A stretch of DNA of 21,318 nt. It comes from a virus. Lineage: Duplodnaviria; Heunggongvirae; Uroviricota; Caudoviricetes. A program made the translations under genes and the position numbers. The stretch lies in IMG/VR virus record IMGVR_UViG_2603880150_000003; one strand, given 5' to 3'. The notes below the pieces were generated by a model, which saw only the letters and a list, made by a program, of their open reading frames with translations, searched no databases and was not told where the DNA came from. Below, one piece after another: positions 1 through 19,954 of this stretch (the stretch's first letter is position 1; every line of letters begins with the position of its first letter).

Positions 1-222
1 TCAGTATCTCGATAAGCGCAGAGAAATGATGCAGTGGTGGGCGGATTGGCTTGATGAAAAAGTGGAGTAATCCGGACCGTACTTCTTTATCCAGGCATAA
101 AGGCTGTGGGTGGTGATATCGAGACGTGTTGCAACGCTGGCAACAGAATAACCGCGATCAATAACCTGTTTGACTGCTTCAGTTTTAAACTCTTCGGGAT
201 AACGCTTACCGCTCATGGGCAC
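1..222 (-). CDS. IS3-family transposase OrfA (HTH_Tnp_1-like N-terminal region), probably degenerate; stop codon at 1-3
   Basis: Translation MPMSGKRYPEEFKTEAVKQVIDRGYSVASVATRLDITTHSLYAWIKKYGPD matches the helix-turn-helix pattern of IS3-family OrfA proteins; the C-terminal 20 residues look unrelated, suggesting decay. Opposite orientation to the neighbouring IS fragment. Confidence 0.55.
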   Translation of the reverse strand: MPMSGKRYPEEFKTEAVKQVIDRGYSVASVATRLDITTHSLYAWIKKYGPDYSTFSSSQSAHHCIISLRLSRY

Positions 223-264
223 CTCTCTTTAAGCCATCTTAAATGACTCTGAGGTGTCTGTTAA

Positions 265-732
265 ACCCGTGGCGATTCAAAACTGCGTGTTACGTTCGCC
301 CTGGACTGTTGCGATCGTGAAGCCATAGACTGGGCCGCAAGCACGGGAGGTTACGATAAAGCGACAGTGCAGGATGTCATGTTAGGAGCGATAGAAAAAC
401 GCTTTGGCGATAAAGTACCGGAACAGTCCATCCAGTGGCTGACAGATAACGGTTCAGCGTATAGAGCGCATGAAACACGGCAGTTCGCCAGAGAGTTGAA
501 TCTGGAGCCCTGCACAACGGCAATCAGCAGTCCTCAGAGTAATGGAATGGCAGAAAGGTTCGTGAAAACGATGAAGGAAGACTACATCGCGTTCATGCCG
601 AAACCGAATGTAAGAACAGCATTGCATAATCTTGCAGTGGCGATCGAACATTACAATGAAAACCATCCGCACAGTGCGCTGGGTTATCGATCTCCGCGAG
701 AATATCGACGTCAGCGGGTAACGTTAACTTAA
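265..732 (+). pseudogene. IS2-like (IS3 family) transposase OrfB, C-terminal DDE-domain fragment
   Basis: In-frame translation from about 265 (..[82 protein letters not shown]) resembles the C-terminal catalytic region of IS2 InsD as I recall it; the N-terminal two thirds are missing, apparently cut off by the adjacent IS fragment. Confidence 0.6.
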
Positions 733-769
733 GATACACCCCCTGTCTGGAAATAAGGGGGCAAGAACA
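265..769 (+). mobile_element. Truncated IS2-like element, right end retained (terminal inverted repeat about 741-769)
   Basis: Sequence after the OrfB stop (..ccctgtctggaaataagggggcaagaaca) resembles the IS2 right terminal repeat (GTCTGGAAATATAGGGGCAAATCCA from memory) and ends in CA directly before the stop codon of the regulator gene at 774. Confidence 0.5.
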
Positions 770-773
770 ATGA

Positions 774-1526
774 TCAGATTCCCTGGTGAGTAAGAATTTT
801 ACTTTCTGAACTCCTCTGAGAGTATTGACTTGGAGAAACACCAAAATAACGTCTAAATACATAAGTAAAGTATGAGACACTGGCATAACCACAGACCTTA
901 GCTACTTTACTAATAGGATAACAACGAGTGCTGAGTAAATATTCAGCCATTTGCATCCTCTCATCAAGTATGATCTTACTGAATGATACCCCCTCTTCTT
1001 TCAATTTCCTCTTTAGTAAACTTTCGCTGAGATATAATCTTGATGATATATCCTTAAGACGCCATGGTGCAGATAAATCCGTATGAATAATCGTTTTAAC
1101 TTTAGCCCCTGTGCTTTTCAAACATTCAAACAGAAATACTCCAAATTGTTTTTCAGAAGAAAATGCAGAGAGACATGTAAAAGCAATAGACTCATCAAAA
1201 ATTTCTATGTATTCAGCACAGTGATTAGCCCAACTAATTAATCCTTTAATTAAACTGAAGTCAGCAAAGTTTATTTTTAAATAAGATGGATATTCCCTAC
1301 AATCAGAAATATCCCTTAAGTTATTAGCTTTCAAATAGCGACTAATAAACTCAGCGCCAAAATCCGCCACTATCACTCTTTCAGGATATGTCAGGAAAAA
1401 ATCTCTAGAGCTAGAGTCGACAAGTACAGATGAACCTCTCTCCAGAAACACACTCTCTTTTCCGAAATAAACATCAAAGGACTCCAAAATCAATATAACT
1501 GAACATGTAGTTGCCATATCATCCAC
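774..1526 (-). CDS. AraC/XylS-family transcriptional regulator (AppY/YdeO/GadX-like), low-GC gene
   Basis: 250-aa ORF; C-terminal region (..WRLKDISSRLYLSESLLKRKLKEEGVSFSKIILDERMQMAEYLL..CGYASVSYFTYVFRRYFGVSPSQY) has the double HTH signature of AraC-family regulators and resembles YdeO/AppY. Markedly AT-rich relative to the prophage genes. Confidence 0.8.
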   Translation of the reverse strand: MDDMATTCSVILILESFDVYFGKESVFLERGSSVLVDSSSRDFFLTYPERVIVADFGAEFISRYLKANNLRDISDCREYPSYLKINFADFSLIKGLISWANHCAEYIEIFDESIAFTCLSAFSSEKQFGVFLFECLKSTGAKVKTIIHTDLSAPWRLKDISSRLYLSESLLKRKLKEEGVSFSKIILDERMQMAEYLLSTRCYPISKVAKVCGYASVSYFTYVFRRYFGVSPSQYSQRSSESKILTHQGI

Positions 1527-2101
1527 CCAACTTAACTGAAACCAGGATGAAGTATATGCATATAAAGTTCACTTTGCCAAACTTCAGTATAAAAAACCAC
1601 ATAAAAAATAGGGTGTGATAAAAAACACCGTAACAATAAAGCAAAGGATTATAAATTCCGTTACAGTTACAAATGATACTCAAGAAACAATTCCTTAGGA
1701 AAAACTTATTTACAGCCAATAAGTAAGACACTTATATGATATCAAGTTTTCATAAAACATAACTAGGCTAAATAGCTGCGCCTAATACCGCTACACTTTT
1801 GCCAGCCCATATTTGCCTCCGGGTATTGACCCCTTCTCTACGCAACTTCAGTTCCCACCACCAACTTTGCGGCAGCTTTGTAGGATCAATGTCTAAAAGA
1901 ATAATGGTGACCGATAAGAAAACGACTGAATAACTGCAAATTTTCGCTCAAAACCTTCCTGTCAGATCCATAGCGAATCAAGTGCTGAATGTCACAGTAT
2001 CAAACAGAAAACAGTGACGATCTAACTCTTCAAGAATATTCTACGATTGTTCTGTTTAGGAAAAGCAAGGCGGGAAGTCGGGAGATAAGTCATTGATAAA
2101 G

Positions 2102-2163
2102 TGGCGGAGAGAGGGGGATTTGAACCCCCGGTAGAGTTGCCCCTACTCCGGTTTTCGAGACCG
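2102..2163 (-). other. Orphan 62-nt 3' fragment of tRNA-Ser(CGA) (serU-type), likely att-site remnant
   Basis: Reverse complement CGGTCTCGAAAACCGGAGTAGGGGCAACTCTACCGGGGGTTCAAATCCCCCTCTCTCCGCCA matches the 3' 62 nt of E. coli tRNA-Ser(CGA) including the CCA end; the match stops abruptly inside the anticodon stem, so no complete tRNA is present. Confidence 0.8.
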
Positions 2164-2906
2164 ATGATACAGAGTCGAAAAATCAAAGAGTTAAAAATTT
2201 TTCTTGGAATAAATGTCTTAAAATCGTACACGAAAAATCAATGAATTACATAACATTAAAGAAGAATATTCCAAGCCTTCTTGATGCTACCACCTGTTTT
2301 CAGGTGTCATTCAGACGTGATTTGCCCCAGATTGGGAAAGCACGCTTTTTTCTCAGCTATCGTCCTCTTATTTTGCCGTTACATTTCTTTTTGCACTCTA
2401 ATGATTAATTTACAATAATAATATCGGTAATTATTGAGTAATAATAAATTGATTATTGCAAATGTAATTTAATTCCATCTTCGCGTTATATTCCAATCTT
2501 TAATCTCCGCATGGAACAAGTTGCATGCGTGACTATATTAAGACAACTTATAACCACCAAAACATTTGCTTTGCAAGCAAAAACAGTGACCATTGACTCT
2601 AAGAAAATTCCGATCTATTGTTAGGGTCATCAAAGTTACTTAACAGTATTCCGAAATGAAAATACAAAGCAAGCTAATTGTCTTATTAAACATTATCATT
2701 GCATTTATATTATTTGAGCTTTTAGCTCAAAAATTTGGTTTGAGTACATTATTTTAAAGCAAGATAAACAATATCGGGCACTCTAGTTTTTATAATTAAC
2801 AATTAAACGTCCATAAAATGTTATTTACTTTTCTTCGCTATTGTCATATCTTAATATAGTGGCTTACGCCACTCTACTTTCATCACATTTTGTACGTTTA
2901 TGTACT

Positions 2907-2939
2907 CGCCATGAAGCTCTTTCATGGCGATTTTTTATT
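2907..2939 (+). terminator. Candidate intrinsic terminator (9-bp stem cgccatgaa/ttcatggcg, loop gctct, then attttttatt)
   Basis: Perfect inverted repeat followed by a T-run on the + strand, inside AT-rich non-coding DNA between the tRNA fragment and tfa. Confidence 0.3.
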
Positions 2940-3022
2940 CTTAATCCAAGAACATACTCCTTACCTATAGCAAAATCACTTTTTGAACAAAAGAATAACG
3001 TATTTAGGTAATCATTACGAAT

Positions 3023-3604
3023 TTACCCTATAGGTGCTACTGGCCATTCAATATCCGGTGCAGTTGTTGTATTAACACGGTTCAGCAACACCCGATACTT
3101 CTTCCAGGCTTCCAGCAACGAGGTTTCTTCCTCCGTTGCAATTTCCAGATCTGCAGCATCCTGAAGCGGCGCAATATGCTCACTGGCTACCTGCATCAGG
3201 CTGTTTTTTGTTTCTTCCGCCTCCCGGATCCGGAACAGTTTTTCTGCTTCTGCATCTTTCACCCAGGCTGTGCCGTTCCACTTCTGATATTCCCCTCCCG
3301 GCGACAACCAGGTAACATTTTCCGGTAACGGACCGAGTTCAGAAATAAATAACGCGTCGCCGGAAGCCACGTCATAAACCGTTTTACCCCGATGGTCTTC
3401 AACGAGATGCCACGATGCCTCATCACTGTTGAAAACAGCCACAAAGCCAGCAGGAATATCTGGTGGTGCAATATCGGTACTGTTTGCTGGCAGACCTGTA
3501 TGAGGCGGAATATATGCGTCACCTTCACCAATAAATTCATTAGTTCCGGCCAGCAGATTATAAATTTTTATGGTCCGTGGTTGTTCACTCATTCTGAATG
3601 CCAT
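3023..3604 (-). CDS. tfa: Tail fiber assembly protein Tfa (lambda Tfa-like)
   Basis: 193-aa translation [51 protein letters not shown].. is near-identical to lambda Tfa as recalled; start overlaps the stf stop by 1 nt. Confidence 0.9.
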
Positions 3605-6600
3605 TATGCAAGCCTCACAATATAGTTAAATGCGATGTTTTTGACGGTGTTTTCCGCGTTACCCGCAGCGTTAACGGTGATGGTATGTCCATGTGAGCCA
3701 ATCGCAACGGAGTGCGTATGAGCACCAATACCGACAGTATGTGCATGTGCGCCTGCGCTTGCAGCAGTGCCGGACAGCGAGTGGGTATGAGCACCATCTG
3801 ATGATGTCTTCCCTGCATTACGAGTCTGGCCACTACCGCTTGTTGTGCTCATAATCCCCGCGCTTAGATTTGAAATCGCAGTATAACCATTAGGAAAAAT
3901 GCTCGTGTTCGTGCCACCAAATGCACCGGAACTCTTGTGTTGGTGCGCACCGGCACTATTTGCTGTCCCGCTAATACTATGGGTATGTGCACCAGTGTTA
4001 TTCGTGGATTTGGTTCCGTAATCAAACGACGATGTGGTTTTCGTCCCCAAATCCGTACTGGATGCGCTGGCGCTGTGGGTGTGCGATTTAATGCCGTCCT
4101 GTTCCTGAGACAATACGGCACGACCACTGGCGGGCTTGCCCTTAATCGTCCAGCCACGCATATCAGGGATCACGCCTGACGGATAAGCAACTGCAAGTTT
4201 CGGGTATGCAGATTTGTCAAAAGTCTGCCCCTGCATCAGGGCATAGCCAGACGGAACGGTATCTGATGGCCACGGGATTGGTGCGCCGACTGGATAAAAC
4301 TCTGCAGGAGGATGAGCCGAGGTGTAAAGCTGCGCCCACGGCGACCAGTTTGCGTCGATCGTATCCCGTCGTGAACGAATAAATGCCGGAGCATGAGCAC
4401 CGCTTGTACCACTCCAGCCGATGAGTAACTCACCTTCGCCAACGGCTGTCATCCCTTTCAGGTGAATGATATTTCCATACGCTGTTGGATATCCGTTGTT
4501 ATACACCTCGTATAACTCAAGACCTGTTGCCCCCTGCGTATTGTCTGTCAGCGCGGTTACCCGACCTTTTGAAGCCAGATTAACTGATGATACTGCTGTT
4601 CCACCTGACGGTAATGCCCCAATCTCTGATGCCGTTGGCTTATTTCTGGAGTTATAGTCCCTTCGCCAGCCAGGTGAATAATCTGTTCCGTGATTAATAT
4701 AGGTAAACTGGGCGTTAGTTGTTCCACCACCAGTGGAGGTGGTCGGTGTGGTAATGCGGATCGTCATCGCTGACTTTATCCCCATTACTTCAATGACAGC
4801 TCCGGCGAGATGAATATTACCGCAGCCAGTATCAGTAATGATTTTATTATTGCCATAAGACCAGGAACCCTTGCACATCCAGTATGGATGGTTAAATGCT
4901 CCCTGAGAATCCAGCCACTCGATAAACTGTGCAGTCGTCCAGTTTCCTGTTGTTGTGCTTACTGACCCACCGAAGGCACGGCAGGCACCAATATTTTTCG
5001 TAAAGGTGTCTTTGCCAGGGATATCCGCACCGTTCTGATCTTTCTGCAGACGTTTCTCAGCATTGTCATTGGCTGCTTTTACTGCCTTTGGCGTTGCCGC
5101 CAGCGTTTCAGACGTGCTGTTGGTCGCGCTGCTTAGCTGGATTATCCCTTTCTGTGCTGTCGTTGCATCCTGTGCGGTGTATTTCCCGTTAGCCAGGTCA
5201 TACGCGGCCTTAACGGCTTTTGGTGTTGCCGCCAGTGACTCGGAAGTGCTGTTAGTCGCACTACTGAGCTGTACTATCCCCTTTTTCGTCGTGCTCGCAT
5301 CCTCAAGCGCCACGGCGGATGCAATATCCTCTGCCCGTTTTGCCGCTGTCTCAGCGCGCGTTGCTGCAGATTCCGCCGTACTTTTGCTCTGAGCTGCTGC
5401 CGTCGCACTACCAGCAGCCTCTGTCGCCTTCGTGGATGCCGTCGTGGCGCTGCCCTTCGCTGCTGACGCCTGTCTGGTCGCCTCATCTTTTGAAGCAGAC
5501 GCCGATGATGCCGATGACGCCGCCGAACTGGCGGACGATGCCGCTGCCGTTTTTGAGGATTCTGCACGGGTTTCCGAGGCTTTCGCGTTCGTTTCGGATG
5601 TCATCGCTGCGGATGCAGACCTCGCTGCTGCGCTGGCCTGTTCAGCGGCTTCGCCAGCCTTCGTTGTGGCTGTTGAAGCGGATGATGCGGCGCTTTCGGC
5701 CGATTTTCCGGCTGCGGTGGCACTGACTGAGGCCTGCCCGGCACTTGTTGACGCGGCACTGGCAGACGACGCAGCCGCTGTTTTTGAGCCTGCCGCAGCT
5801 GAGGCGCTCTGTCCCGCTGCCGTCTCAGAAGACCTGGCGTTCGTCTCGGACGTTTTTGCCGCCTTCGCGGAATTTCCTGCCGCCGTTGCCGAGGAAGCGG
5901 CACTACTGGCGCTTGATGATGCGTTCGTTTCTGATGATTTTGCCGCTTCTTTTGAGGCCGCCGCATCCCGGGCCGAGGTCGCAGCTTCTGATGCCTTCGT
6001 GGTCGCGGTGGATGCAGATGTGGCTGCTGATTGTTGTGACGCTGAAGCATTCGTTTCTGACGTTTTCGCCGCACCGGCACTGGTGGCCGCCGCGCTTTTT
6101 GAGGACTCTGCAGCGGCAGCACTTTTTGATGCTTCAGTGGCCTTTGTTGATGCCGTTCCTGCGCTGGAAGACGCTGACTGAGCCGACGACGCGGCCTGTC
6201 CGGCTGACGTGCTGGCTGCGCGTGCTGAGTCCGCAGCATCAGCCGCATGGGTTGCCGCCTCACGGGCTGATGTGCTGGCATCACTGGCTGACTTCTTCGC
6301 GGCTGCCGTGTTCTGTGCCACCGCGGACGCGTTACGCGCCACCTCTTCCACCATCAGTTCAAAACGGCGCAGTGCCTCAGGACGGGCATCATCCTCCGTC
6401 ATGGCACCGAGAAAATCATTCAGCGTACCGGGTTGAGAATCTTCATACACGGTGATGGTCCCGGCATGTGACGGCGGGAATCCTTCCACCAACAGAATAA
6501 CGCTGTACTGACCGTACTCCACATCCATGCTGTAACGCCCGGCTTCATCCGGATTCTCTGAGCCCACCGTGTTCACCACCACCGTGGTGCTGTTACGTCT

Positions 6601-6684
6601 GGCTTTCAGCTGAATGGTGCAGTTCTGTACCGGTTTTCCTGTGCCGTCTTTCAGGACTCCTGAAATCTTTACTGCCATATTCAC
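3604..6684 (-). CDS. stf: Side tail fiber protein Stf (StfR/lambda Stf-like), 1026 aa, with long Ala/Ser/Thr-rich region
   Basis: N-terminus [64 protein letters not shown].. matches Rac/lambda side tail fibers; contains tandem [27 protein letters not shown] motifs and a C-terminal His-rich GAHTHSxSGTA repeat region. Confidence 0.9.
5085..5290 (-). repeat. Tandem ~120-bp repeat inside stf encoding the duplicated SATNSTSE(S/T)[11 protein letters not shown] motif
   Basis: Two near-identical DNA blocks (about 5085-5165 and 5205-5285) are visible on the + strand; both translate on the - strand to the conserved tail-fiber motif. Confidence 0.6.
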
Positions 6685-6689
6685 CCCAC

Positions 6690-6715
6690 AAAAAAGCCCA
6701 CCGGTTCCGGCGGGC
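6690..6715 (-). terminator. Candidate intrinsic terminator between the lom remnant and stf
   Basis: Hairpin gcccacc..ggcgggc followed on the - strand by UUUUUU (the + strand shows aaaaaa at 6690-6695 before the stem). Confidence 0.4.
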
Positions 6716-6742
6716 TGTCATAACACTGTGTTACCTGGCTAA

Positions 6743-8353
6743 TCAGAATTTATAACCGACCCCAACGATGAATCCGTCAGTACGCCAGTCGCCACTGCCG
6801 GAGCCTTCATAAGCAATATCAACAACGACGGACGCTGCCGGATTAATCTGTATACCTGCACTCCACGCCACTGAGGTATGCCGCATTGCACTTTCGTCCC
6901 TGGCGGTGGTCGTCTCTTTCATATAGCCGGATGCATCATCACTCGGCTGACCAACAGCCTCCACGAATGCCGATTTGCCAACGGTGTTCACACTGCGAAC
7001 GTAAAAATAATAATCATAGCCCGGCCTGATATTGATACTGGCGGCTATCCAGTACAGCCCCGTGCCAAGGTAGCGGGCTGTGGTTTCAACCTGCCTGATA
7101 TCGGTAATCCGCTTTTCCGAGAACCAGAACTCAAACTGTACCGTCGGGTCATAAACGGCAAGATGCGGCGTGGCGGTTATCTGAAAATAGCCCGGCGTCA
7201 GCTCAATCCTCGACGGTGCTGCCGGTGCGGCAATCCGGAACGATACCGACGCCGGATCTCCCTGCTGCCCCCACGCATTTACCGCCCGGACTGTCAGCCT
7301 GTAGTTCCCCAGCGCCAGTTGCGTGAAGCGGTATGTGGTTTCCGTCGTCCGGGCCGTGCTGACCAGCCGCTCACTGCCGTCGTCCGCTGTTACGGTCAGA
7401 CGGAGCAGGAAGCTCACGCCCTTCACCACCTTCGGTGTGTCCCAGCGCGCCAGCACCTGATATTCCCCGCTGTCTGCAGTGACTTCTGCGGTCAGGTGCT
7501 GCACCGCTGGCGGCGTGACACCGTTCACCGTGCCACTCTGTTCGCCGTCAAAGTGCGCCCCGTTATCCACGATGGCCTCTTTTTCCGGCACATGCTGCAC
7601 GGCGGTGATGGCATACGTACCGTCATCGTTCTCACGGATACTCACACAGCGGAACAGGCGCTGGCGCAGCGTCGGCAGCTTCAGCCCCCACACGCTGTAT
7701 TCGGCAACGCCGTCAGGAACACGGCTCACTTTCACCTTAAGTCCGTCGGTGACGGACTGAACCTCCACGCTGACCGGATTACCACTTCCGTCAACCAGGC
7801 TTATCAGCGTGGTACCGGAGGATGGCAGCGTGATTTCACGGTCGAGCGTCAGCGTCCGGGTCTGGCTGTTCACCGCCAGCACGCGACCACCGGTGCTGAT
7901 ACCGGCATAGTCATCATCGCAGATTTCAATGACATCGCCCGGTACATGGCGAAGCCCTTCAGCACCCACGCTGAAATCCACGGTCTGCGTCTCCAGCAGT
8001 TCCGTTTTAATCAGCCACAGCCCGGCGCGGTGTGCCTGCCCCCGGCTGGTACAGCCAAAGGCATCCATCTTCGTGACATTACGACCGTAACGGGCAATGG
8101 CCTGCGTATCTTCAACAAGCTCTGTCGCCGTCTCCCAGCCGTTGTCCGGGTCAATCCAGTTCACCTCAACGGCATTATGGCGGTCCTTCAGGGCGCTGAA
8201 GCTGTAGCGGAACGGCGCGCCATCATCCGGCATCACCACATTACTGCGGTTATAGGTCCACACCTTATCCGACGGTCGGTCCTGCACGAACGTCAGCGTC
8301 TGCCCGTTCCATACCGGCATACAGCGCATCGCCGAGCAGAAATCACTGAGCAC
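6743..8353 (-). pseudogene. Tail tip/host-specificity protein J, central fragment, fused in frame to the C-terminal ~59 codons of lom
   Basis: Translation from [19 protein letters not shown].. through ..[20 protein letters not shown] matches the central part of lambda gpJ; the last 59 aa ([59 protein letters not shown]) match the Lom C-terminus with the Ail/Lom/PagC beta-barrel terminal signature. The J N-terminus and C-terminal receptor-binding domain are absent. Confidence 0.75.
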
Positions 8354-8888
8354 ATCCCACGCCTTGCGCTGTGTGGTCAGGTATCAGTTCATCCAGCGCG
8401 GCTGCTTTGTTCATGGCTTTGATGATATCCCGTTTCAGGAAATCAACATGTCGGTTTTCCAGTTCCGGAAAACGCCGCTGCACCGACAGGGGGATCCCGT
8501 CGAGAATACTGGCAATTTCACCTGCGATCCGCGACAGCACGAAAGTACAGAATGCGGTTTCCACCACTTCAGCGGAGTCTCTGGCATTTTTCAGCTCCTG
8601 TGCGTCGGCCTGCGCACGCGTAAGTCGATGGCGTTCGTACTCAATAGTCCCTGGCTGGAGATCTGTCTCGCTGGCCTGCCGCAGTTCTTCAACTTCCCGG
8701 CGCAGCTTTTCGTTCTCAATTTCAGCATCCCTTTCGGCATACCATCTTATAACGGCGGCAGAGTCATAAAGCACCTCATTACCCTTGCCACCGCCTCGCA
8801 GAACGGGCATTCCCTGTTCCTGCCAGTTCTGAATGGTACGGATACTCGCACCGAAAATGTCAGCCAGCTGCTTTTTGTTGACTTCCAT
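8343..8888 (-). pseudogene. nu1: Terminase small subunit Nu1 (NohD-like), C-terminally truncated at a deletion junction
   Basis: MEVNKKQLADIFGASIRTIQNWQEQGMPVLRGGGKGNEVLYD.. matches lambda Nu1 up to ..[10 protein letters not shown], then diverges ([11 protein letters not shown]) where the sequence enters the J reading frame. Confidence 0.8.
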
Positions 8889-9065
8889 TGTTCATTCCAC
8901 GGACAAAAACAGAGAAAGGAAACGACAGAGGCCAAAAAGCTCGCTTTCAGCACCTGTCGCTTCCTTTCTTTTCAGAGGGTATTTTAAATAAAAACATTAA
9001 GTTATGACGAAGAAGAACGGAAACGCCTTAAACCGGAAAATTTTCATAAATAGCGAAAACCCGCG

Positions 9066-9077
9066 AGGTCGCCGCCC
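9066..9077 (-). other. cosN cohesive-end site (GGGCGGCGACCT) with adjacent cosB-like region toward nu1
   Basis: Reverse complement of 9001-9090 reproduces the remembered lambda left end GGGCGGCGACCTCGCGGGTTTTCGCTATTTATGAAAATTTTCCGGTTTAAGGCG.. preceded by ..CCGACAGGTTACG, the lambda right end. Confidence 0.8.
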
Positions 9078-9276
9078 CGTAACCTGTCGGATCGCCGGAA
9101 AGGACCCGCAAAATGATAATAATTATCATCTGCATGTCACAACGTGCATCTACGCCATCAAACCACGTCAAATAATCAATTATGACGCAGGTATCATATT
9201 AATTGATCTGCATCAACTTAACGTAAAAACAACTTCAGACAATACAAATCAGCGACACTGAATACGGGACAACCTC

Positions 9277-9471
9277 ATGTCAACGAAGAACAGAACCCGC
9301 AGAACAACAACCCGCAACATCCGCTTTCCTAACCAAATGATTGAACAAATTAACATCGCTCTTGAGCAAAAAGGGTCCGGGAATTTCTCAGCCTGGGTCA
9401 TTGAAGCCTGCCGTCGGAGACTAACGTCAGAAAAGAGAGCATATACATCAATCCAGAGTGATGATGAATAA
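9277..9471 (+). CDS. Small prophage protein, YlcI-like (DUF3950-type), 64 aa
   Basis: ORF MSTKNRTRRTTTRNIRFPNQMIEQINIALEQKGSGNFSAWVIEACRRRLTSEKRAYTSIQSDDE; position between cos and bor corresponds to ylcI in DLP12-like prophages. Family assignment is from memory. Confidence 0.5.
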   Translation: MSTKNRTRRTTTRNIRFPNQMIEQINIALEQKGSGNFSAWVIEACRRRLTSEKRAYTSIQSDDE

Positions 9472-9708
9472 ACATCCCGGTTTCTTCCACCATCGCACCG
9501 GAAAAGCGACTATGAGGGTAACCCTGCGTCTGTCAGCACAGTAAAACCCGGTGTGCATCGTTTTTGATTATTCCCGCACACTCACGCAGAAGGAATTCCC
9601 CGTCGGGCTACGGTCATGGTTAATGCGGGAATACGGCGACGATACAGCGCAGCTAAAAGGGTAATGGACAGAAAGAGCGGTTTATTTCATTCCACAGGAT
9701 TCTGAGTG

Positions 9709-9718
9709 CCCCCCCCCC
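9709..9718. repeat. Homopolymeric C10 tract (G10 on the - strand) about 115 bp upstream of bor
   Basis: Directly counted: positions 9709-9718 are ten consecutive C residues, followed by tcctcc. Confidence 0.9.
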
Positions 9719-9834
9719 TCCTCCAATAGGCTGAGCATCCACCTATATAGTTTTAATTTTCATCAATCCATTTAACTATCGTTTAATTGTTGTCACATAG
9801 GATTCTGCCGTTTTTAACAATGCAGGATAATAAG

Positions 9835-10128
9835 ATGAAAAAAATGTTGTTTTCTGCCGCTCTGGCAATGCTTATTACAGGATGTGCTCAACAGACGTTT
9901 ACTGTTGGAAACAAACCGACAGCAGTAACACCAAAGGAAACCATCACCCATCATTTCTTCGTTTCGGGAATTGGACAGGAGAAAACTGTTGATGCAGCCA
10001 AAATTTGTGGCGGCGCAGAAAATGTTGTTAAAACAGAAACCCAGCAAACATTCGTAAATGGATTTCTCGGTTTTATTACTTTAGGCATTTATACTCCGCT
10101 GGAAGCGCGTGTGTATTGCTCACAATAA
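9835..10128 (+). CDS. bor: Bor lipoprotein (serum-resistance moron)
   Basis: MKKMLFSAALAMLITGCAQQTFTVGNKPTAVTPKETITHHFFVSGIGQEKTVDAAKICGGAENVVKTETQQTFVNGFLGFITLGIYTPLEARVYCSQ matches lambda Bor; lipobox LITGC; antisense to the lysis genes as in lambda. Confidence 0.85.
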   Translation: MKKMLFSAALAMLITGCAQQTFTVGNKPTAVTPKETITHHFFVSGIGQEKTVDAAKICGGAENVVKTETQQTFVNGFLGFITLGIYTPLEARVYCSQ

Positions 10129-10159
10129 TTGCATGAGTTGCCCATAGATATGGGCAGCT

Positions 10160-10621
10160 CTATCTGCACTGCTCATTAATATACTTCTGGGTTCCTTCCA
10201 GTTGTTTTTGCATAGTAATCAGCCTCTCTCTGAGGGTGAAATAATCCCGTTCAGCGGTGTCTGCCAGTCGGGGGGAGGCTGCATTATCCACGCCGGAGGC
10301 GGTGGTGGCTTCACGCACTGACTGACAGACTGCTTTGATGTGCAACCGACGACGACCAGCGGCAACATCATCACGCAGAGCATCATTTTCAGCTTTCGCA
10401 TCAGCTAACTCCTTCGTGTATTTTGCATCGAGCGCAGCAACATCACGCTGACGCATCTGCATGTCAGTAATTGCCGCGTTCGCCAGCTTCAGTTCTCTGG
10501 CATTTTTGTCGCGCTGGGCTTTGTAGGTAATGGCGTTATCACGGTAATGATTAACAGCCCATGACAGGCCGACGATGATGCAGATAACCAGAGCGGAGAT
10601 AATCGCGGTTACTCTGTTCAT
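10160..10621 (-). CDS. Rz: Spanin inner-membrane subunit Rz
   Basis: [85 protein letters not shown].. matches lambda Rz; ATGA overlap with the R stop. The listed ORF starts 4 codons earlier. Confidence 0.85.
10219..10401 (-). CDS. Rz1: Spanin outer-membrane lipoprotein Rz1, embedded in Rz in the +1 frame
   Basis: [60 protein letters not shown]: lipobox VVGC and proline-rich segment as in lambda Rz1. Confidence 0.75.
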
Positions 10622-11115
10622 TGCTGACCCCACAAACAGATTTCACGCTCAATCTCACGACGAGTCATGAGACCTTTCCATTGCTTACCGCCAGCATATG
10701 TCCAGCGACGTAGCTGATCACATGCGCCTTTAATATCACCCTGGTTTATTTTGCGAAGAAGCGTCGATGTTCTGAAATTGCCAGCACCCACGTTGTAGAC
10801 GAACGAGTAAAGAGCGCCGCGCGTTGTTTCCGGTATATCGACTTTGATGTACGGGTTAATTTGTCTGGCGACAGTGGCAAGGTCTTTATTCAGGAGGGCT
10901 TTGCACTCTGCTTCGGTATACGTTTTACCGGGAATGATGTCTTTTCCTGTATGCCCGTGACATACAGTCCATACACCAACTATGTCTTTGTAAGGATTAT
11001 GTCTCACACCTTCCAGACCATCGTTACCACTTGGGCCAGTGATTAATACAGATGCTATAGCAATAGCCCCGCCACCAATAGCAGCAGCAACAGCTTTTCG
11101 TAATGATGGAGGCAT
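10618..11115 (-). CDS. R: SAR endolysin (phage 21 R / RrrD-type lysozyme)
   Basis: 165 aa with N-terminal signal-anchor-release-like hydrophobic segment ([20 protein letters not shown]) and lysozyme-like core; unlike lambda R transglycosylase; follows the holin with overlapping stop/start. Confidence 0.85.
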
Positions 11116-11330
11116 TATCCACCTCTCGCAGCCTTGCGCTTATCTTCTTTAATCTTGAAATAAAGGTTTGTCAGGTACGTCAGCAGGCCAAATACCAGGC
11201 TACCCAGCACTCCAATTGCCGCCCACTGTGAGGGCGTGACTTTATCTAGCAGCTGTAAAAACCAGTACCCGGCACTACCTGCTGAGGTGCCATAGGCGAC
11301 ACCCGTTGTTAACTTATCCATGGATTTCAT
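11115..11330 (-). CDS. S: Holin, phage 21 S-type pinholin (EssD-like)
   Basis: 71 aa [71 protein letters not shown]; two TM segments and a charged C-terminus, matching S21. Confidence 0.85.
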
Positions 11331-11453
11331 AACCCCACCTCGCAGACAAAGCGGGTGTAAATTGAGGGAATACTACGAAACGTAACAGACTCGGAGTCAG
11401 TGAATAACTCAGGTATTGGGTTATCAGCTAATATCGAGACTCAAAAAATGGAA

Positions 11454-11475
11454 AAACCCGCTCGACGGCGGGTTT
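11454..11475 (-). terminator. Candidate hairpin/terminator upstream of S on the late strand
   Basis: Inverted repeat aaacccgc/gcgggttt with 6-nt loop; on the - strand the stem is followed by a short U-run. Weak. Confidence 0.3.
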
Positions 11476-11902
11476 AAGCTGTGTGACGAAGTAACCACTC
11501 TTAACAGCATAACCAATTTTTTACGTACGTAAACCACTAAATGATATTTGCGAGAATGCTACCGAGTATTGAAAACACCACTACAAATACATAAGAAAAT
11601 CTCAACAAATAACCAACAAATAATTTCCAGTGTTATTTTTAGCCGGTTTAAATTGAACCTTCAAATTATAGAGCACTTATAAATAACAGCCGTTAATATA
11701 AATTGGCTAACAGATTTATTTTTATTCAGCCAAGAGCCATGAATAGGATTCGATAGAAAAAAGTTCAGATAAAAATAGAGATCTACTTCACAAATCAAAC
11801 GAGAAACCAAAACTTACATCTTGAAATAATCACATTGATTAGATGAATATTTATCGCGCAGTGACATCATTTTTTAATAATAGTTCAAAAAAAGGGCTCA
11901 CG

Positions 11903-13000
11903 ATGAAAAAATTAACAGTGGCAATTTCTGCTGTAGCTGCATCAGTACTGATGGCGATGTCTGCTCAGGCAGCTGAAATTTATAATAAAGACAGTAACAA
12001 GCTGGATCTGTACGGGAAAGTTAATGCTAAGCACTACTTCTCCTCTAATGATGCAGATGATGGTGATACTACTTATGCCCGTCTTGGCTTCAAAGGTGAA
12101 ACCCAAATCAACGATCAACTGACTGGTTTCGGTCAGTGGGAATATGAATTCAAAGGCAACCGCGCTGAATCTCAAGGCTCCTCCAAAGACAAAACCCGTC
12201 TTGCATTTGCAGGCCTGAAATTCGGTGACTACGGCTCCATCGATTACGGCCGTAACTACGGTGTAGCATACGACATCGGCGCGTGGACTGACGTCCTGCC
12301 AGAATTCGGTGGTGACACTTGGACTCAAACCGACGTGTTCATGACTCAACGTGCAACTGGTGTTGCAACCTATCGTAACAACGACTTCTTTGGTCTGGTT
12401 GATGGTCTGAACTTTGCTGCTCAGTACCAAGGCAAAAACGATCGTAGCGATTTCGATAACTACACTGAAGGTAACGGTGATGGCTTCGGTTTCTCTGCTA
12501 CCTATGAATACGAAGGATTCGGTATCGGTGCAACTTATGCGAAATCTGATCGTACCGACACTCAAGTTAATGCAGGGAAAATTCTTCCTGAAGTATTTGC
12601 TTCCGGTAAAAATGCAGAAGTTTGGGCCGCAGGTCTGAAATATGACGCTAACAACATTTACCTGGCCACTACCTATTCTGAAACCCAGAATATGACTGTA
12701 TTTGCTGATCACTTCGTTGCTAATAAAGCCCAAAACTTCGAAGCTGTTGCACAATATCAGTTCGATTTCGGTCTGCGTCCGTCCGTTGCTTACCTGCAAT
12801 CTAAAGGTAAGGATCTTGGAGTATGGGGCGATCAGGACTTAGTCAAATATGTTGATGTAGGTGCAACCTATTACTTCAACAAAAATATGTCTACTTTCGT
12901 TGATTACAAAATCAACCTGCTTGACAAAAATGACTTCACTAAAGCACTCAGTGTAAGCACTGATGACATCGTTGCTGTAGGTCTGGTTTACCAGTTCTAA
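11903..13000 (+). CDS. nmpC: Outer membrane porin NmpC/OmpD/Lc (OmpC family), apparently intact
   Basis: [23 protein letters not shown] signal peptide, then [23 protein letters not shown].. and C-terminal ..VAVGLVYQF, the general-porin signature; SD aaaggg upstream. The listed ORF starts 20 codons upstream but 11903 fits the signal peptide. Convergent with Q, as for nmpC in DLP12. Confidence 0.9.
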
Positions 13001-13016
13001 TCTGATTACGAAAAAG

Positions 13017-13050
13017 ATATGTTGCGGGAGGCTTTGCCTCCCCAACATAT
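13017..13050 (-). terminator. Strong hairpin just after the nmpC stop; on the - strand followed by aucuuuuucg (candidate late-strand terminator, possibly tR')
   Basis: About 15-bp stem (atatgttgcgggaggc / gcctccccaacatat, one bulge) with ttt loop; rc of 13008-13016 gives a U-run after the stem on the - strand. Confidence 0.4.
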
Positions 13051-13137
13051 AAGTGGCTCCCTCAAGCCACTTCCTTTAGGAGCACAACCTTGCTTCTAAC
13101 TATATAAACCTTCTGTTATATATTACCCTTTATTTTT

Positions 13138-13162
13138 GGGGGCGTTGCAACGCCCCATTTTT
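13138..13162 (+). terminator. Intrinsic terminator for nmpC
   Basis: Perfect palindrome gggggcgttgcaacgcccc followed by atttttaataattttt on the + strand. Confidence 0.55.
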
Positions 13163-13189
13163 AATAATTTTTAGTAAACAACTGGCATA

Positions 13190-13573
13190 TTAATTAGAGT
13201 TATTAACAACGATATCCATCTCTAACCGGATATCTAATGCCATTAACATCCCTTCAATTATGCCCTCAGCCTTCTGTAACCTTTTCCCGATATAACCATC
13301 AGAGCAGCAATGCTTACCTGCCAGTGACATGAATGTCATACCGACTACATAATAATCTACTAATAAATCGTGCAAATCGCTGTTGTTCTTTTTCAGACGG
13401 GCCATGCACCCGCAAATAATCATCGCGTCATCGTCACAACATTGCGGGCGAGATTTTACTTTTGAAGTAATTAATCCCTTAAAACCGGCGGCAATGGACG
13501 ACCAGGTCACATCTTCATGATTATTAGCCGCCCACGCTCCCCAACGCTCAAGAACCATCTGAATATCACGCAT
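13190..13573 (-). CDS. Late-gene antiterminator Q (QuuD / phage-82-type Q-like), 127 aa
   Basis: [62 protein letters not shown].. with Cys-rich motif; sits between rusA and the lysis genes; SD GGAG precedes the MRDIQ start (the listed ORF begins at an upstream TTG). Confidence 0.8.
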
Positions 13574-13658
13574 CAACTTACTCCACAAAAATCAGACCAG
13601 AACGCCAATTACAAGCAAAAATCAACAAAACAGTATTAGTTGATTGTTATCTCTGACT

Positions 13659-13796
13659 TCATACTCCTGCTCCTGTCAGGGTTTTGGCGTAATTCTTCAG
13701 TATTCGGTAATCGGTCAAAACAGAACCAGGAAAACGATATAAGCGCAGGCGCATCCAGCGGTGGCGAAGACGTTCTGCCACATAAAACTCAAACAT
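13659..13796 (-). CDS. Small ORF (45 aa), YlcG-like by position between rusA and Q
   Basis: ATG overlaps the rusA stop (TGATG); translation [45 protein letters not shown]. Below the ORF-track length cutoff; identity inferred from synteny only. Confidence 0.4.
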   Translation of the reverse strand: MFEFYVAERLRHRWMRLRLYRFPGSVLTDYRILKNYAKTLTGAGV

Positions 13797-14158
13797 CATT
13801 CATTCCCCATTTCGGTGATGGTCAGTTCCAGCCTCCCACCTTTGGTAACAGGCATCTTCACAACGCGGTAATCAACGACCTGAGCATCATCCAGCCAGAA
13901 ACCTGCTTTAGTGAGTGCGTCAAAAGCGGCTTTTTGCAGATTATCCAGGTCACGGCGACGGCGATCCGGCATGTGGCACTCAATGCGGATTTTCACAGGG
14001 ATAGCCAGGCCGATATCCAGCATTGCGTTTTTAATGATTCTGGCGACGTTATCGCGGTATGCCTGCCCCTCTGCGCTGACGTGCGTGCGCCCGCGATTAT
14101 GGCGGTAATAGCGATTATTGCTCGGAGGCCAGGGTAATGTGATGCTGTAGGTATTCAC
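13796..14158 (-). CDS. rusA: Holliday junction resolvase RusA
   Basis: [120 protein letters not shown] matches RusA; GTG start. Confidence 0.9.
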
Positions 14159-14364
14159 GCCTTAATAATCCCCTCTTTCAGCCACATAACCTGTGTTTTC
14201 GCCATACCTTCCAGCGCGCATTCTTTTGCATATGCAGCATCGACTTGCTTGGCATGCCCTTTACCGGCAATCTTCTGTATGCGCTAAACCTAGATAGAAT
14301 CCACTCTGTGCACATTGAAGCCCGCTCTATGCTTCCTTTCAGGTATTGAAGGGATTGAGATGGG
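14156..14364 (-). pseudogene. ybcO-like (DUF1364) gene remnant, frameshifted/internally deleted
   Basis: The last ~40 codons (..[29 protein letters not shown]) match the YbcO C-terminus and its stop overlaps the rusA start, but upstream the frame is broken by stops and the space between ninX and rusA (~207 bp) is too short for a full gene. Confidence 0.5.
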
Positions 14365-14712
14365 CTAAGCATTATTGGCCTCCTGCATCAGGAGAAAGAC
14401 AATCATGGCGGCGCGGAGAGGTCTGGTATCAAATATTGGGCTTACGCCTTTTGCATCCACACACCATTCAGTTAACTGGTCTAAGATAGAAATCCTGTAT
14501 TTCTCAATAATCGGCCATGAAGCGCTCGGATCATTGCAGTAATCAGGCAAATGATTTAATGGCTCAAAAGTTGTATCAGCATTTCCGTAATACCATTTGT
14601 TGGTGTTATTCCCTGATGTTTCCGGTTTACTTGCCCAAAGGCCTTTAAAAATTATGTCTCCTACCATTCTGTTAATTTCAAAATCACTTAACTGTGAATA
14701 ATCCATTGTCAT
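14365..14712 (-). CDS. nin-region protein, NinX/DUF2591-like (family name from memory)
   Basis: [34 protein letters not shown]..; ATGA overlap with the ninE stop at 14709-14712 supports this start rather than the upstream one in the ORF track. Confidence 0.6.
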
Positions 14713-14885
14713 TTCCTCGCACGATATCTTAGCCACCGGATATCCCACAGGTGAGCTGTGTAATTGAAGGTTTTTACGTCAGATTCTTTTGGGATTGGCT
14801 TGCGTTTATTTCTGGAGCGTTTCGTTGGAAGGTATTTGCAGTTTTCGCAGATGATGTCGGTGAAACTTCGTCGCTGTCGCCTCAT
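14709..14885 (-). CDS. ninE: NinE
   Basis: 58 aa [58 protein letters not shown] resembles lambda/DLP12 NinE; ATGA overlap with the upstream Dam fragment stop. Confidence 0.75.
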
Positions 14886-15229
14886 GCCGCCCTCCTGACG
14901 CCCTGCCCGATCGCCATCAATGCCGCTTTGGATACGGTAGTAAACATCCGTCGAGGACTGATGAACAGTCGCCAAATCAGCAGCATGGAGCCTTTGCTGT
15001 TTTCCTTCTTCTCCAACCCTGTCGATGGTTCGATAAAATTAATCCGTCCATCAGTGATAATGCGAACTTCGTCGACACTCTCCAGAGCCTTGCTGAACCA
15101 TCCGACTGACATATCCTCTGGCACAAGCATAACTACCGTCTGTCGCTGTTGTATGCACTGCTCAGCGGCTTTTTCCACCCACGGCCTGATATTGCTGTAC
15201 GGTGGGTTATTCCAGATTGCACCGTGGCT
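14882..15229 (-). pseudogene. Phage Dam-type N6-adenine DNA methyltransferase, 3' fragment (contains the NPPY motif)
   Basis: Minus-strand translation from 15229: [71 protein letters not shown]..; catalytic NPPY motif present, no N-terminal domain; an in-frame stop lies immediately upstream (15230-15232). Confidence 0.7.
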
Positions 15230-15230
15230 T

Positions 15231-15542
15231 TACGAGTATTGCCGGAAGCGAGGCCTGTATCCGGATGCGGAGTCTTATCCGTGGAAATCAAACGCGCACT
15301 ACTGGCTGGTTACCAACCTGTATCAGAACATGCGGGCCAATGCGCTTACTGATGCGGAATTACGGCGCAAGGCTGCCGATGAACTGACCTGTATGACAGC
15401 GCGAATTAACCGTGGTGAGACGATACCTGAACCAGTAAAACAACTTCCTGTTATGGGCGGTAGACCTCTAAATCGTGCACAGGCTCTGGCGAAGATCGCA
15501 GAAATTAAAGCTAAGTTCGGACTGAAAGGAGCAAGTGTATGA
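15231..15542 (+). pseudogene. P: Replication protein P, C-terminal ~104 codons only
   Basis: YEYCRKRGLYPDAESYPWKSNAHYWLVTNLYQNMRANALTDAELRRKAADELTCMTARINRGETIPEPVKQLPVMGGRPLNRAQALAKIAEIKAKFGLKGASV matches the lambda P C-terminus; the preceding 160 codons of the listed ORF are antisense to ninE/dam and unrelated to P. Confidence 0.8.
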
Positions 15543-15829
15543 CGGGCAAAGAGGCAATTATTCATTACCTGGGGACGCATAATAGCTTCTGTGCGCCGGA
15601 CGTTGCCGCGCTAACAGGCGCAACAGTAACCAGCATAAATCAGGCCGCGGCTAAAATGGCACGGGCAGGTCTTCTGGTTATCGAAGGTAAGGTCTGGCGA
15701 ACGGTGTATTACCGGTTTGCTACCAGGGAAGAACGGGAAGGAAAGATGAGCACGAACCTGATTTTTAAGGAGTGTCGCCAGAGTGCCGCGATGAAACGGG
15801 TATTGGCGGTATATAGAGTTAAAAGATGA
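15539..15829 (+). CDS. ren: Ren
   Basis: MTGKEAIIHYLGTHNSFCAPDVAALTGATVTSINQAAAKMARAGLLVIEGKVWRTVYYRFATREEREGKMSTNLIFKECRQSAAMKRVLAVYRVKR matches lambda Ren; ATGA overlap with the P stop. Confidence 0.85.
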   Translation: MTGKEAIIHYLGTHNSFCAPDVAALTGATVTSINQAAAKMARAGLLVIEGKVWRTVYYRFATREEREGKMSTNLIFKECRQSAAMKRVLAVYRVKR

Positions 15830-15902
15830 CCATCTATATTACTGAGCTAATAACAGGCCTGCTGGTAATCGCAGGCCTTTTTATTTGGGGGAGAGGGAAG
15901 TC

Positions 15903-16343
15903 ATGAAAAAACTAACCTTTGAAATTCGATCTCCAGCACATCAGCAAAACGCTATTCACGCAGTACAGCAAATCCTTCCAGACCCAACCAAACCAATCGT
16001 AGTAACCATTCAGGAACGCAACCGTAGCTTAGACCAAAACAGGAAGCTATGGGCCTGCTTAGGTGACGTCTCTCGTCAGGTTGAATGGCATGGTCGCTGG
16101 CTGGATGCAGAAAGCTGGAAGTGTGTGTTTACCGCAGCATTAAAGCAGCAGGATGTTGTTCCTAACCTTGCCGGGAATGGCTTTGTGGTAATAGGCCAGT
16201 CAACCAGCAGGATGCGTGTAGGCGAATTTGCGGAGCTATTAGAGCTTATACAGGCATTCGGTACAGAGCGTGGCGTTAAGTGGTCAGACGAAGCGAGACT
16301 GGCTCTGGAGTGGAAAGCGAGATGGGGAGATCGGGCTGCATGA
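15903..16343 (+). CDS. ninB: NinB (Orf-family recombination mediator)
   Basis: MKKLTFEIRSPAHQQNAIHAVQQILPDPTKPIVVTIQERNRSLDQNRKLWACLGDVSRQVEWHGRWLDAESWKCVFTAALKQQD.. matches lambda NinB; SD gagggaag upstream. Confidence 0.9.
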   Translation: MKKLTFEIRSPAHQQNAIHAVQQILPDPTKPIVVTIQERNRSLDQNRKLWACLGDVSRQVEWHGRWLDAESWKCVFTAALKQQDVVPNLAGNGFVVIGQSTSRMRVGEFAELLELIQAFGTERGVKWSDEARLALEWKARWGDRAA

Positions 16344-16708
16344 CTATCAAATCAAATACGCCAGCACACGACAAGGACTGCTGGCAAACGCCGCTTTGGC
16401 TTTTTGATGCACTGGATATTGAGTTTGGATTCTGGCTGGATTCGGCAGCGAGCGACAAAAATGCTCTGTGTGCTCACTGGCTAACTGAGGCCGACGACGC
16501 GCTCAATTCTGAGTGGGTACACAAAGCATCTCCTGTTGAGTTAAGAACGAGTATTGAGATGGCACATAGCCTTGCTCAAATTGGAGTCAGGTTTGTGCCA
16601 ATACCAGTAGAAACAGACGAAGAATTTCATACGTTAGCCGCATCCCTTTCACAAAAGCTGGAAATGATGGTGGCGAAAGCAGAAGCAGATGAGAGAGACC
16701 AGGTATGA
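16340..16708 (+). pseudogene. Dam-type methyltransferase 5' fragment (62 codons, DCWQTP motif) fused in frame to an early-left small ORF (possibly lambda orf63-like)
   Basis: MTIKSNTPAHDKDCWQTPLWLFDALDIEFGFWLDSAASDKNALCAHWLTEADDALNSEWVH is the N-terminal half expected upstream of the NPPY fragment at 14882-15229; after His62 the sequence (KASPVELRTSIEMAHSLAQIG..) is unrelated to Dam. ATGA overlap with the ninB stop. Confidence 0.65.
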
Positions 16709-16784
16709 CAACCACTGAATGCATTTTTCTGGCAGCGGGCTTCATATTCTGTGTGCTTATGCTTGCCGACATGGGACTTGTTCA

Positions 16785-17000
16785 ATGACACCTCAGCAAG
16801 AAAACGCCCTTCGCAGTATTGCCCGTCAGGCTAATTCTGAAATCAAAAAAGCCAGACAGCAGTTTCCGGATAAAAACGTCGATGACATTTGCCGTAGCGT
16901 ACTGAAGAAGCACCGCGAAACGGTAACGCTGATGGGATTCACACCGACTCATTTAAGCCTGGCGATCGGCATGTTAAACGGCGTCTTTAAGGAGCGATGA
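16785..17000 (+). CDS. Small early-left ORF (71 aa), lambda orf61-region-like
   Basis: MTPQQENALRSIARQANSEIKKARQQFPDKNVDDICRSVLKKHRETVTLMGFTPTHLSLAIGMLNGVFKER; assigned by position upstream of the TraR-like ORF and ea22; start chosen at the internal Met of the listed ORF. Confidence 0.45.
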   Translation: MTPQQENALRSIARQANSEIKKARQQFPDKNVDDICRSVLKKHRETVTLMGFTPTHLSLAIGMLNGVFKER

Positions 17001-17098
17001 ACATGAAAAGCAAAATCATCAGGGAGCTACAGGCTCCTTTTTTATTATTCGCATTCACCCTCAAGCGTATTAACCAACAATTCAGGGATTAATGGAAG

Positions 17099-17320
17099 AT
17101 GGCAGACATCATTGATTCAGCATCAGAAATCGAAGAATTACAGCGCAATACAGCAATAAAAATGCGTCGTCTGAACCACCAGGTTATATCTGCCACTCAT
17201 TGTTGTGAGTGTGGCGATCCCATAGATGAGCGAAGACGCCTGGCCGTTCAGGGCTGTCGGACTTGTGCAAGTTGCCAGGAAGATCTGGAGCTTATCAGTA
17301 AACAGAGAGGTTCGAAGTGA
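17099..17320 (+). CDS. TraR/DksA-family C4 zinc-finger protein (lambda Orf73-like)
   Basis: 73 aa with CCECGDPIDERRRLAVQGCRTCASCQ four-Cys motif typical of TraR/DksA C4 zinc fingers; ATGA overlap with ea22. Confidence 0.65.
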   Translation: MADIIDSASEIEELQRNTAIKMRRLNHQVISATHCCECGDPIDERRRLAVQGCRTCASCQEDLELISKQRGSK

Positions 17321-17865
17321 GCGAAATTAACTCTCAGGCACTGCGTGAAGCGGCAGAGCAGGCAATGCATGACGACTGGGGATTTGACGCAGACCTTTTC
17401 CATGAATTGGTAACACCATCGATTGTGCTGGAACTGCTGGATGAACGGGAAAGAAACCAGCAATACATCAAACGCCGCGACCAGGAGAACGAGGATATTG
17501 CGCTAACAGTAGGGAAACTGCGTGTTGAGCTTGAAACAGCAAAATCAAAACTCAACGAGCAGCGTGAGTATTACGAAGGTGTTATCTCGGATGGGAGTAA
17601 GCGTATTGCTAAACTGGAAAGCAACGAAGTCCGTGAAGACGGAAACCAGTTTCTTGTTGTTCGCCATCCTGGGAAGACTCCTGTTATCAAGCACTGCACT
17701 GGTGACCTGGAAGAGTTTCTGCGGCAGTTAATCGAACAAGACCCGTTAGTAACTATCGACATCATTACGCATCGCTATTACGGGGTTGGAGGTCAATGGG
17801 TTCAGGATGCAGGTGAGTATCTGCATATGATGTCTGACGCTGGCATTCGCATCAAAGGAGAGTGA
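17317..17865 (+). CDS. ea22: Ea22
   Basis: 182-aa translation MSEINSQALREAAEQAMHDDWGFDADLFHELVTPSIVLELLDERERNQQYIKRRDQENEDIALTVGKLRVELETAKSKLNEQ.. matches lambda Ea22 as recalled, in lambda-like position. Confidence 0.8.
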   Translation: MSEINSQALREAAEQAMHDDWGFDADLFHELVTPSIVLELLDERERNQQYIKRRDQENEDIALTVGKLRVELETAKSKLNEQREYYEGVISDGSKRIAKLESNEVREDGNQFLVVRHPGKTPVIKHCTGDLEEFLRQLIEQDPLVTIDIITHRYYGVGGQWVQDAGEYLHMMSDAGIRIKGE

Positions 17866-18056
17866 GATCGGTTTTGTAAAAGATAACGCTTGTGAAAATG
17901 CTGAATTTCGCGTCGTCTTCACAGAGATGCCAGAGTCTGTAGTGTCAGATGATGACCGTACTCAAACATCGGGTTGAGTATTATCTTACTGTTTCTTTAC
18001 ATAAACATTGCTGATACCGTTTAGCTGAAACGACATACATTGCAAGGAGTTTATAA

Positions 18057-19900: not shown

Positions 19901-19954
19901 TGATTTTATTTTGACTGATAGTGACCTGTTCGTTGCAACAAATTGATAAGCAAT

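Follow-up and report, generated by a model that had tools for sequence, protein, structure and literature searches.

A J-lom fusion in a defective lambdoid prophage of E. coli and its probable origin by stepwise decay

On the minus strand of the window (by which we mean the whole 21,318-nucleotide stretch of DNA analysed here), an internal piece of a lambda-type J gene runs in a single open frame into the last codons of a lambda-type lom gene. We consider it very likely that this chimera is a non-functional gene remnant, left by two-step decay in a defective lambdoid prophage that lies between ybhB and ybhC. In the first step, an illegitimate deletion fused nu1 to J codon 328, removing the head genes and the other tail genes. 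In the second, illegitimate recombination within a shared TAT fused J codon 814 to lom codon 147, at a cost of about 1.46 kb. The chimera is a remnant and not a hybrid outer-membrane protein, and the ORF very probably yields no working protein.

Layout, parentage and breakpoint of the fused frame

Counted from its first in-frame GTG, the chimeric ORF occupies 6743..8353 on the minus strand and has 536 codons (ORF list and translation). When 8500..6743 of the minus strand is translated, the frame is seen to be open already from 8383, giving 546 codons between a stop at 8386-8384 and a stop at 6745-6743. The J-derived part (6923..8383, minus) corresponds to lambda J residues 328-814 by blastn and phmmer, and the Lom-derived part (6743..6922, minus) to lambda lom codons 148-206 plus the stop, with the ending ...GVGYKF. 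At the nucleotide level, 8383..6933 matches an internal part of J (lambda 16486-17936) at 96.2% identity (blastn), and 6930..6700 matches lambda 19398-19628 at 99.1%. The nearest allele to the 3' end of the J-derived part is the J gene of mEp332 (97.8%). By phmmer, residues 1-489 of the open frame align to lambda J 328-816 over 489 residues (PDB 8iyk/9e7m chain J), while residues 483-546 align to Lom 143-206 (PDB 9wso_C). The J match ends at residue 814-816, and the PDB construct J713-1132 is covered for its first 104 residues only.

The original prediction held that a J fragment runs in frame, with no intervening stop, into roughly the last 59 residues of Lom, and on this the translation, tblastn and phmmer agree. 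The C-terminal 59 residues of the ORF are identical to residues 148-206 of the 206-residue lambda Lom (59/59; tblastn E=7e-33), and 20 other lambda-type records show the same 59-residue identity by tblastn. Chance cannot account for a match of this kind, which lies far beyond it. The prediction had also named the result that would count against it, a tail closer to native J-family proteins than to Lom; with all 59 residues identical to lambda Lom, a native J-family C-terminus is ruled out.

The domain composition follows the same division. Pfam finds, in order, Phage-tail_3, Ig_J, Ig_J_second and then positions 138-199 of the 199-position Ail_Lom profile. The central J domains (PF13550, PF24421, PF24489) are present with E-values of 1e-38 to 1e-44, and the Ig_J_second match stops at the break, which puts Y814 at the end of FNIII-2. 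The Lom tail aligns to OmpX/Ail residues 107-156 of 156, which corresponds to about the final three strands of the eight-stranded barrel.

Where exactly does J give way to lom? Three-way alignments of nucleotides, in which the window was compared with five J alleles and with lambda lom, place the crossover at 6925-6923 (minus), in a Tyr codon TAT that is common to J Y814 and Lom Y147. A junction at a shared Gly-Tyr had been proposed; both parents do have this dipeptide at the joint (J G813-Y814 and Lom G146-Y147), and the alignments narrow the switch to the Tyr codon, the Gly codon GGC upstream being J-type and the ATG downstream lom-type. J alleles of the mEp332, REL606, HSP425 and F1005 types match the window exactly through ...GATGATGCATCCGGCTAT and then continue with CTGGAT..., and lambda lom reads ...ACTCCCGGGTAT followed by ATGAAAGAG..., as does the window. 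We scored microhomology against these four types of allele, which match up to the TAT. Lambda's own J was rejected as the parent at the joint, where it fits poorly (GCGGAAGGTTAC versus GCATCCGGCTAT); this allele diverges just before the joint.

The joint has what a short-homology deletion calls for: the shared TAT, imperfect homology around it (J TCCGGCTATCTGGA versus lom CCCGGGTATATGAA) and no inserted or filler bases. In the comparison of an mEp332-like J with lambda lom, 10 of the 14 surrounding positions agree, and the perfect microhomology amounts to 3 nt, the TAT itself. At least 3 matching nucleotides are expected at about 5% of random joints (chance about 0.05). The joint is consistent with illegitimate recombination at short homology, and is weak evidence for any particular pathway. 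The earlier proposal of a microhomology-mediated deletion therefore stands as regards the shared bases and the loss of the J C-terminus and most of lom, but the homology is a modest 3 nt, nor is it proven that the deletion took place in cis.

In lambda numbering, J Y814 (17944-17946) is fused to Lom Y147 (19403-19405) and 1459 bp are lost. J and lom occupy separate frames in lambda and now share one because this loss equals 1 mod 3. That the frame was kept across the joint is compatible with chance, for which the prior is one in three.

The prophage, its relatives and the order of the two deletions

The window is a defective lambdoid prophage of roughly 20 kb at the lambda attachment site, ybhB–ybhC. 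Its gene order is ybhB - IS remnants - AraC-type regulator - tfa - stf - lom' - J' - nohD - ylcI - iss/bor - rzpD - rrrD - essD - porin - quuD - ... - xis - int - ybhC. In strain AH21, bioB-bioA precede ybhB, and past quuD come ylcG, rusA and nin genes, up to the end of the stretch examined; the xis/int/ybhC end is seen in relatives at the same site and in the features that lie under the window-wide match. The orientation is canonical for a prophage at the lambda site, with the b-region and tail end adjoining bio. Besides J and lom, blastn aligns window 9077..8380 (minus) to lambda 1-699 (cos and nu1) at 98.6%, 6930..5770 (minus) to lambda 19398-20558 (the 3' end of lom and the 5' part of stf) at 91.1%, and 3741..3042 (minus) to lambda 21836-22535 (tfa) at 95.0%. 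The head genes and the remaining tail genes are all absent: lambda 700-16485 is missing, and nohD lies directly upstream of J'.

The junction left by this older deletion, between nu1 (lambda 699) and J (lambda 16486), lies at 8380..8383 on the minus strand and has a 4-nt overlap, ATAC (blastn and sequence). The deletion took away genes A through I and J codons 1-327. Upstream of it, nohD (8343..8888, minus; PGAP) encodes a 181-aa Nu1 homologue with a Pfam Phage_Nu1 match over residues 1-164; the gene keeps the length of Nu1, its last approximately 12 codons being J DNA read in another frame. Downstream of the remnant come stf (3604..6684, minus; 1026 codons; Pfam phage_tail_N, Phage_fiber_2 and Collar; PGAP) and then tfa (3023-3604; PGAP). 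PGAP describes the lom part as Ail/Lom family, incomplete, with the N-terminus missing, and the J part as host specificity protein J, incomplete, with both termini missing; in RefSeq both halves are flagged as partial mid-contig pseudogenes.

Several other features of the prophage may be recorded here. The central region of stf is long, repetitive and rich in Ala, Ser and Thr, and gives rise to many spurious long ORFs on both strands, e.g., 5432-6181 (plus) and 5601-6284 (minus). At window positions 1-1526, the place of the lambda b region beside ybhB is taken by IS/transposase fragments and by an AraC-family regulator that is intact (774-1526, minus); PEC1009 and TUM1887 match this end at 98-99% identity, so it is conserved in this family of lambda-site prophages. 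Two cargo genes run opposite to the late-gene strand, a porin (11843-13000, plus) in the quuD-essD interval and iss/bor (approximately 9835-10128, plus) in the rzpD-nohD interval. The genes for the porin and for the iss/bor serum-resistance lipoprotein appear intact, while the morphogenesis genes are gone. A segment carrying P', ren, ninB and the 5' part of a DNA adenine methyltransferase gene (approximately 15228-16519, plus) stands inverted when compared with TUM1887 or with the remainder of the early-right region, and the methyltransferase gene is split into a 3' part at 14882-15229 (minus) and a 5' part at 16340-16519 (plus). O and the immunity region are absent from the window.

The original prediction suggested searching other E. 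coli for the same junction. Among 5426 complete genomes we found it in two, AH21 and F3_13_1_3, the remaining matches ending at the edge of lom, and it recurs in the same context in drafts and metagenomes. The bovine isolate F3_13_1_3 is 100% identical to the whole window in one piece. AH21 is also 100% identical, in two pieces that span about 2.6 kb more, with IS3-family transposases annotated under the match. One IMG/VR contig carries the junction with 100% identity over 8983 nt, and one metagenome contig with 98.7% over 4.7 kb. One and the same 70-nt string spans the junction in both complete genomes, which were closed independently of each other, and in 12 more contigs drawn from drafts, SRA assemblies and metagenomes. 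As a protein, the exact 536-aa (GTG 8353) or 525-aa (ATG 8320) product is on record from at least 22 contigs, which come from NCBI drafts, from SRA assemblies or from ENA/JGI metagenomes, and in each its neighbours are Nu1 and Stf; the 528-aa version (ATG 8329) has no exact-protein record. A scan of species-representative genomes for an exact 33-nt junction gave no match, which is uninformative with one genome per species, and a literature search for a described J-lom fusion returned nothing specific.

Nearly all copies are identical. The diverged one, on metagenome contig OMNU01005218.1 (L009), has 33 differences in J' that cluster at 7304-7991 and fall nearly all at third codon positions, and none from 7304 through the junction to 4941, well into stf. 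We read these differences as a probable gene-conversion patch from an intact, functional J allele, and not as a sign of constraint on the chimera. The junction has a single origin and a narrow distribution.

The order of the two deletions is given by strain F1005, whose prophage, likewise at ybhB, shares the nu1-J junction. In it the 3' end of J is still complete and lom, with 199 aa, is of full length, so the nu1-J deletion came first and the J-lom event second. Outside the genomes that bear the J-lom junction, F1005 is the only one in which the nu1-J junction appears as one continuous alignment; in the nohD-J' remnant of E. coli B/C, the pieces matching Nu1 and J lie approximately 350 nt further apart than in the window. 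Also at this site, TUM1887 retains terminase, portal, full J and full lom, while PEC1009 has nohD joined directly to lom' (L011 7131-7570). The same-site sisters with the 199-aa lom allele align to the window only up to 6822, at 93-94%.

In other lambdoid prophages, the interval from the J 3' end to lom has been struck repeatedly by independent deletions. EC102 has a separate J-lom deletion with a 4-nt overlap, out of frame (L003 3142-3300). In phage D2, J is followed by 68 nt of unplaced sequence and then by an out-of-frame 3' fragment of lom (L002 3140-3420), and in HSP425 a 5'-truncated lom overlaps a full J (L004 3142-3501). One in three of the J-lom deletions examined (window, EC102, D2) is in frame, as expected by chance.

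Fate of any product and competing explanations

What did the J-lom event remove? The deleted DNA comprises J residues 815-1132, the J-lom spacer, and the Lom signal peptide MRNVCIAVAVFAALAVTVTPARA with residues 1-146. The N-terminal part of the J hub, residues 1-327, is absent as well, the J match beginning at residue 328 right after the stop at the nu1/J junction; in lambda these residues build the tail-tip hub with gpL, gpM and gpI. What is left of J is part of the hub domains and the two fibronectin-type domains FNIII-1 (Ig_J) and FNIII-2 (Ig_J_second). Residues 815-1132 correspond to the alpha-helical shaft, the central straight fibre and the receptor-binding (LamB-binding) domain; we follow PMC11101478 for the names and order of the lambda J domains (hub, FNIII, shaft, straight fibre, receptor-binding domain).

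Set against a functional gpJ, the chimera has the central Phage-tail_3 and the two FNIII domains, but neither the N-terminal hub nor the shaft, fibre and receptor-binding parts, and the tail gene cluster is gone. Set against an Ail/Lom/OmpX barrel, it has the aromatic C-terminal beta-signal, but neither a signal peptide nor a full PF06316 match (eight strands). As in a prophage gene remnant, it is truncated at both ends relative to its intact homologues, in a prophage that has lost essential morphogenesis genes. A missing signal peptide had been predicted and is borne out: that of Lom is gone with residues 1-146, and inspection of the translation found none at the N-terminus of the ORF, which is internal J sequence. 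The same prediction drew attention to the C-terminal aromatic residue typical of beta-barrel outer-membrane proteins. The terminal Phe is indeed kept, exactly as in lambda Lom, but it is inherited and not functional; since the signal peptide and most of the barrel are missing, the beta-signal it forms cannot act. Any product of the chimera would be expected to stay in the cytoplasm, unable to join a tail tip or to insert as a beta-barrel.

Would there be a product at all? Upstream of the three candidate starts (GTG 8353, ATG 8329 and ATG 8320), inspection revealed no ribosome-binding site: AAGG, the sole purine-rich motif before GTG 8353, is only 1 nt away from it, and neither ATG is preceded by a Shine-Dalgarno-like motif. 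The J frame is closed by a stop immediately 5' of the nu1-J junction, and lom has lost the DNA ahead of it, in which its own promoter, if any, would have been. GTG 8353 overlaps the end of nohD by 11 nt, which makes translational coupling to nohD conceivable, and Q-dependent late transcription from the retained quuD-essD-nohD side could read through the ORF. The ORF may thus lie within a residual late transcript and its translation would be weak or absent. Past the lom stop and ahead of the stf start, a consensus scan found a terminator-like hairpin (6695..6716, minus; a 9-pair stem with 7 GC pairs, then the T run TTTTTGTGGG); it sits in a 58-nt spacer that matches lambda and came with the 3' end of lom. 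Against an inert remnant, the ORF is intact for 546 codons and is called by automatic gene callers in many assemblies, and as judged by sequence alone its translation is possible. From the start regions we infer that little or no protein is made from it.

Could the same inert remnant have come from an illegitimate crossover between two lambdoid genomes, instead of a simple deletion within one prophage? Such a crossover would have involved a lambda-like phage that superinfected and the defective prophage already in residence, or else two prophages standing in tandem at the lambda attachment site. We regard this route as unlikely, though worth keeping in mind. J' is nearest to the mEp332/F1005 type (97.8%) and the lom'-stf 5' part to the lambda/D2 type (99-100%), the sisters at the same site have the other, 199-aa lom allele, and the exact parental combination, an mEp332-like J followed by a lambda-type lom, was found in none of the genomes and phages examined. 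Lambdoid phages are mosaics, however, and a parent of this make-up is entirely plausible; the same picture would arise if the lom-stf module had been exchanged by homologous recombination, be it before the deletion or after it, and two genomes are not required. Crossover or cis deletion alters the route and not the nature of the product. That the junction is an assembly artefact, or its tail a native J-family C-terminus that resembles Lom, can practically be dismissed, given the 70-nt string in two closed genomes and 12 contigs, the 59/59 identity to Lom, and a sequence that runs on into lom's own terminator and stf.

A different proposal is that the chimera is made as a protein and has been retained because it does something useful; as a J fragment it could, for example, disturb tail-tip assembly when lambdoid phages superinfect. 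We find this highly improbable. In its favour, the frame stays open over 546 codons, late-operon genes are retained upstream of it, and some two dozen assemblies have it unchanged, but these copies are essentially clonal, so their identity is uninformative on selection, and the sole divergent copy (L009) shows an imported third-position patch at 7304-7991. There is, moreover, no visible ribosome-binding site, the N-terminal part of the J hub is missing, the frame outcome is that of chance (1/3), and the junction is rare (2/5426 complete genomes). One may go further and imagine that the ORF is translated, perhaps coupled to nohD, and is retained because the J fragment, from the cytoplasm, spoils the tail tips of lambdoid phages as they assemble, whether these phages superinfect or are co-resident. 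If true, this would be a domesticated structural-gene fragment acting as a defence, yet its likelihood seems to us slighter still. A non-functional remnant of prophage decay is the reading we retain.

Comparison with known genes and prophages

The remnant itself matters little, and no biological question is raised by it. The locus, in turn, is a clean and datable case of stepwise decay at the lambda attachment site, with F1005 preserving the intermediate, and the junction can serve to mark the lineage of the strains in which it occurs. It also calls for caution in annotation: in automatic gene calls the remnant passes for a gene of 536 or 525 aa, and its Phage-tail_3 / Ig_J / Ail_Lom architecture misleads.

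Of what has been described, lambda J and Lom come nearest to the chimera. With lambda gpJ (PDB 8IYK, 8XCI, 8XCJ), it shares residues 328-814 at approximately 97% protein identity, including Phage-tail_3, FNIII-1 and FNIII-2. Unlike gpJ, it lacks residues 1-327 and 815-1132, and its prophage lacks the other tail genes (among them H, M, L, K and I, which lie upstream in lambda). With lambda Lom, a member of the Ail/Lom/OmpX/PagC group of 8-stranded outer-membrane barrels (PDB 9WSO chain C), it has the last 59 residues in common, including ...GYKF; in contrast to Lom, it lacks the signal peptide and, of the 199 Ail_Lom profile positions, keeps no more than the last 62.

Among prophages, F1005, PEC1009 and TUM1887 have the same backbone and site as the window but differ in their breakpoints, and the J-lom fusions of EC102 and D2 have other breakpoints than the window and are out of frame. 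The cryptic prophage Rac of K-12 (ynaA-lomR-stfR-tfaR) provides the nearest parallel in kind. There, a truncated ynaA abuts and overlaps an N-terminally truncated lom pseudogene, which is followed by stf and tfa, and this is the same kind of decay, with an endpoint in lom. Rac differs in that its upstream fragment is annotated as a tape-measure-domain protein and not as J, the frames differ, and lomR is also split by IS5. The J-lom fusion, the halves of which are already flagged as pseudogenes in RefSeq, is likewise ordinary prophage decay.
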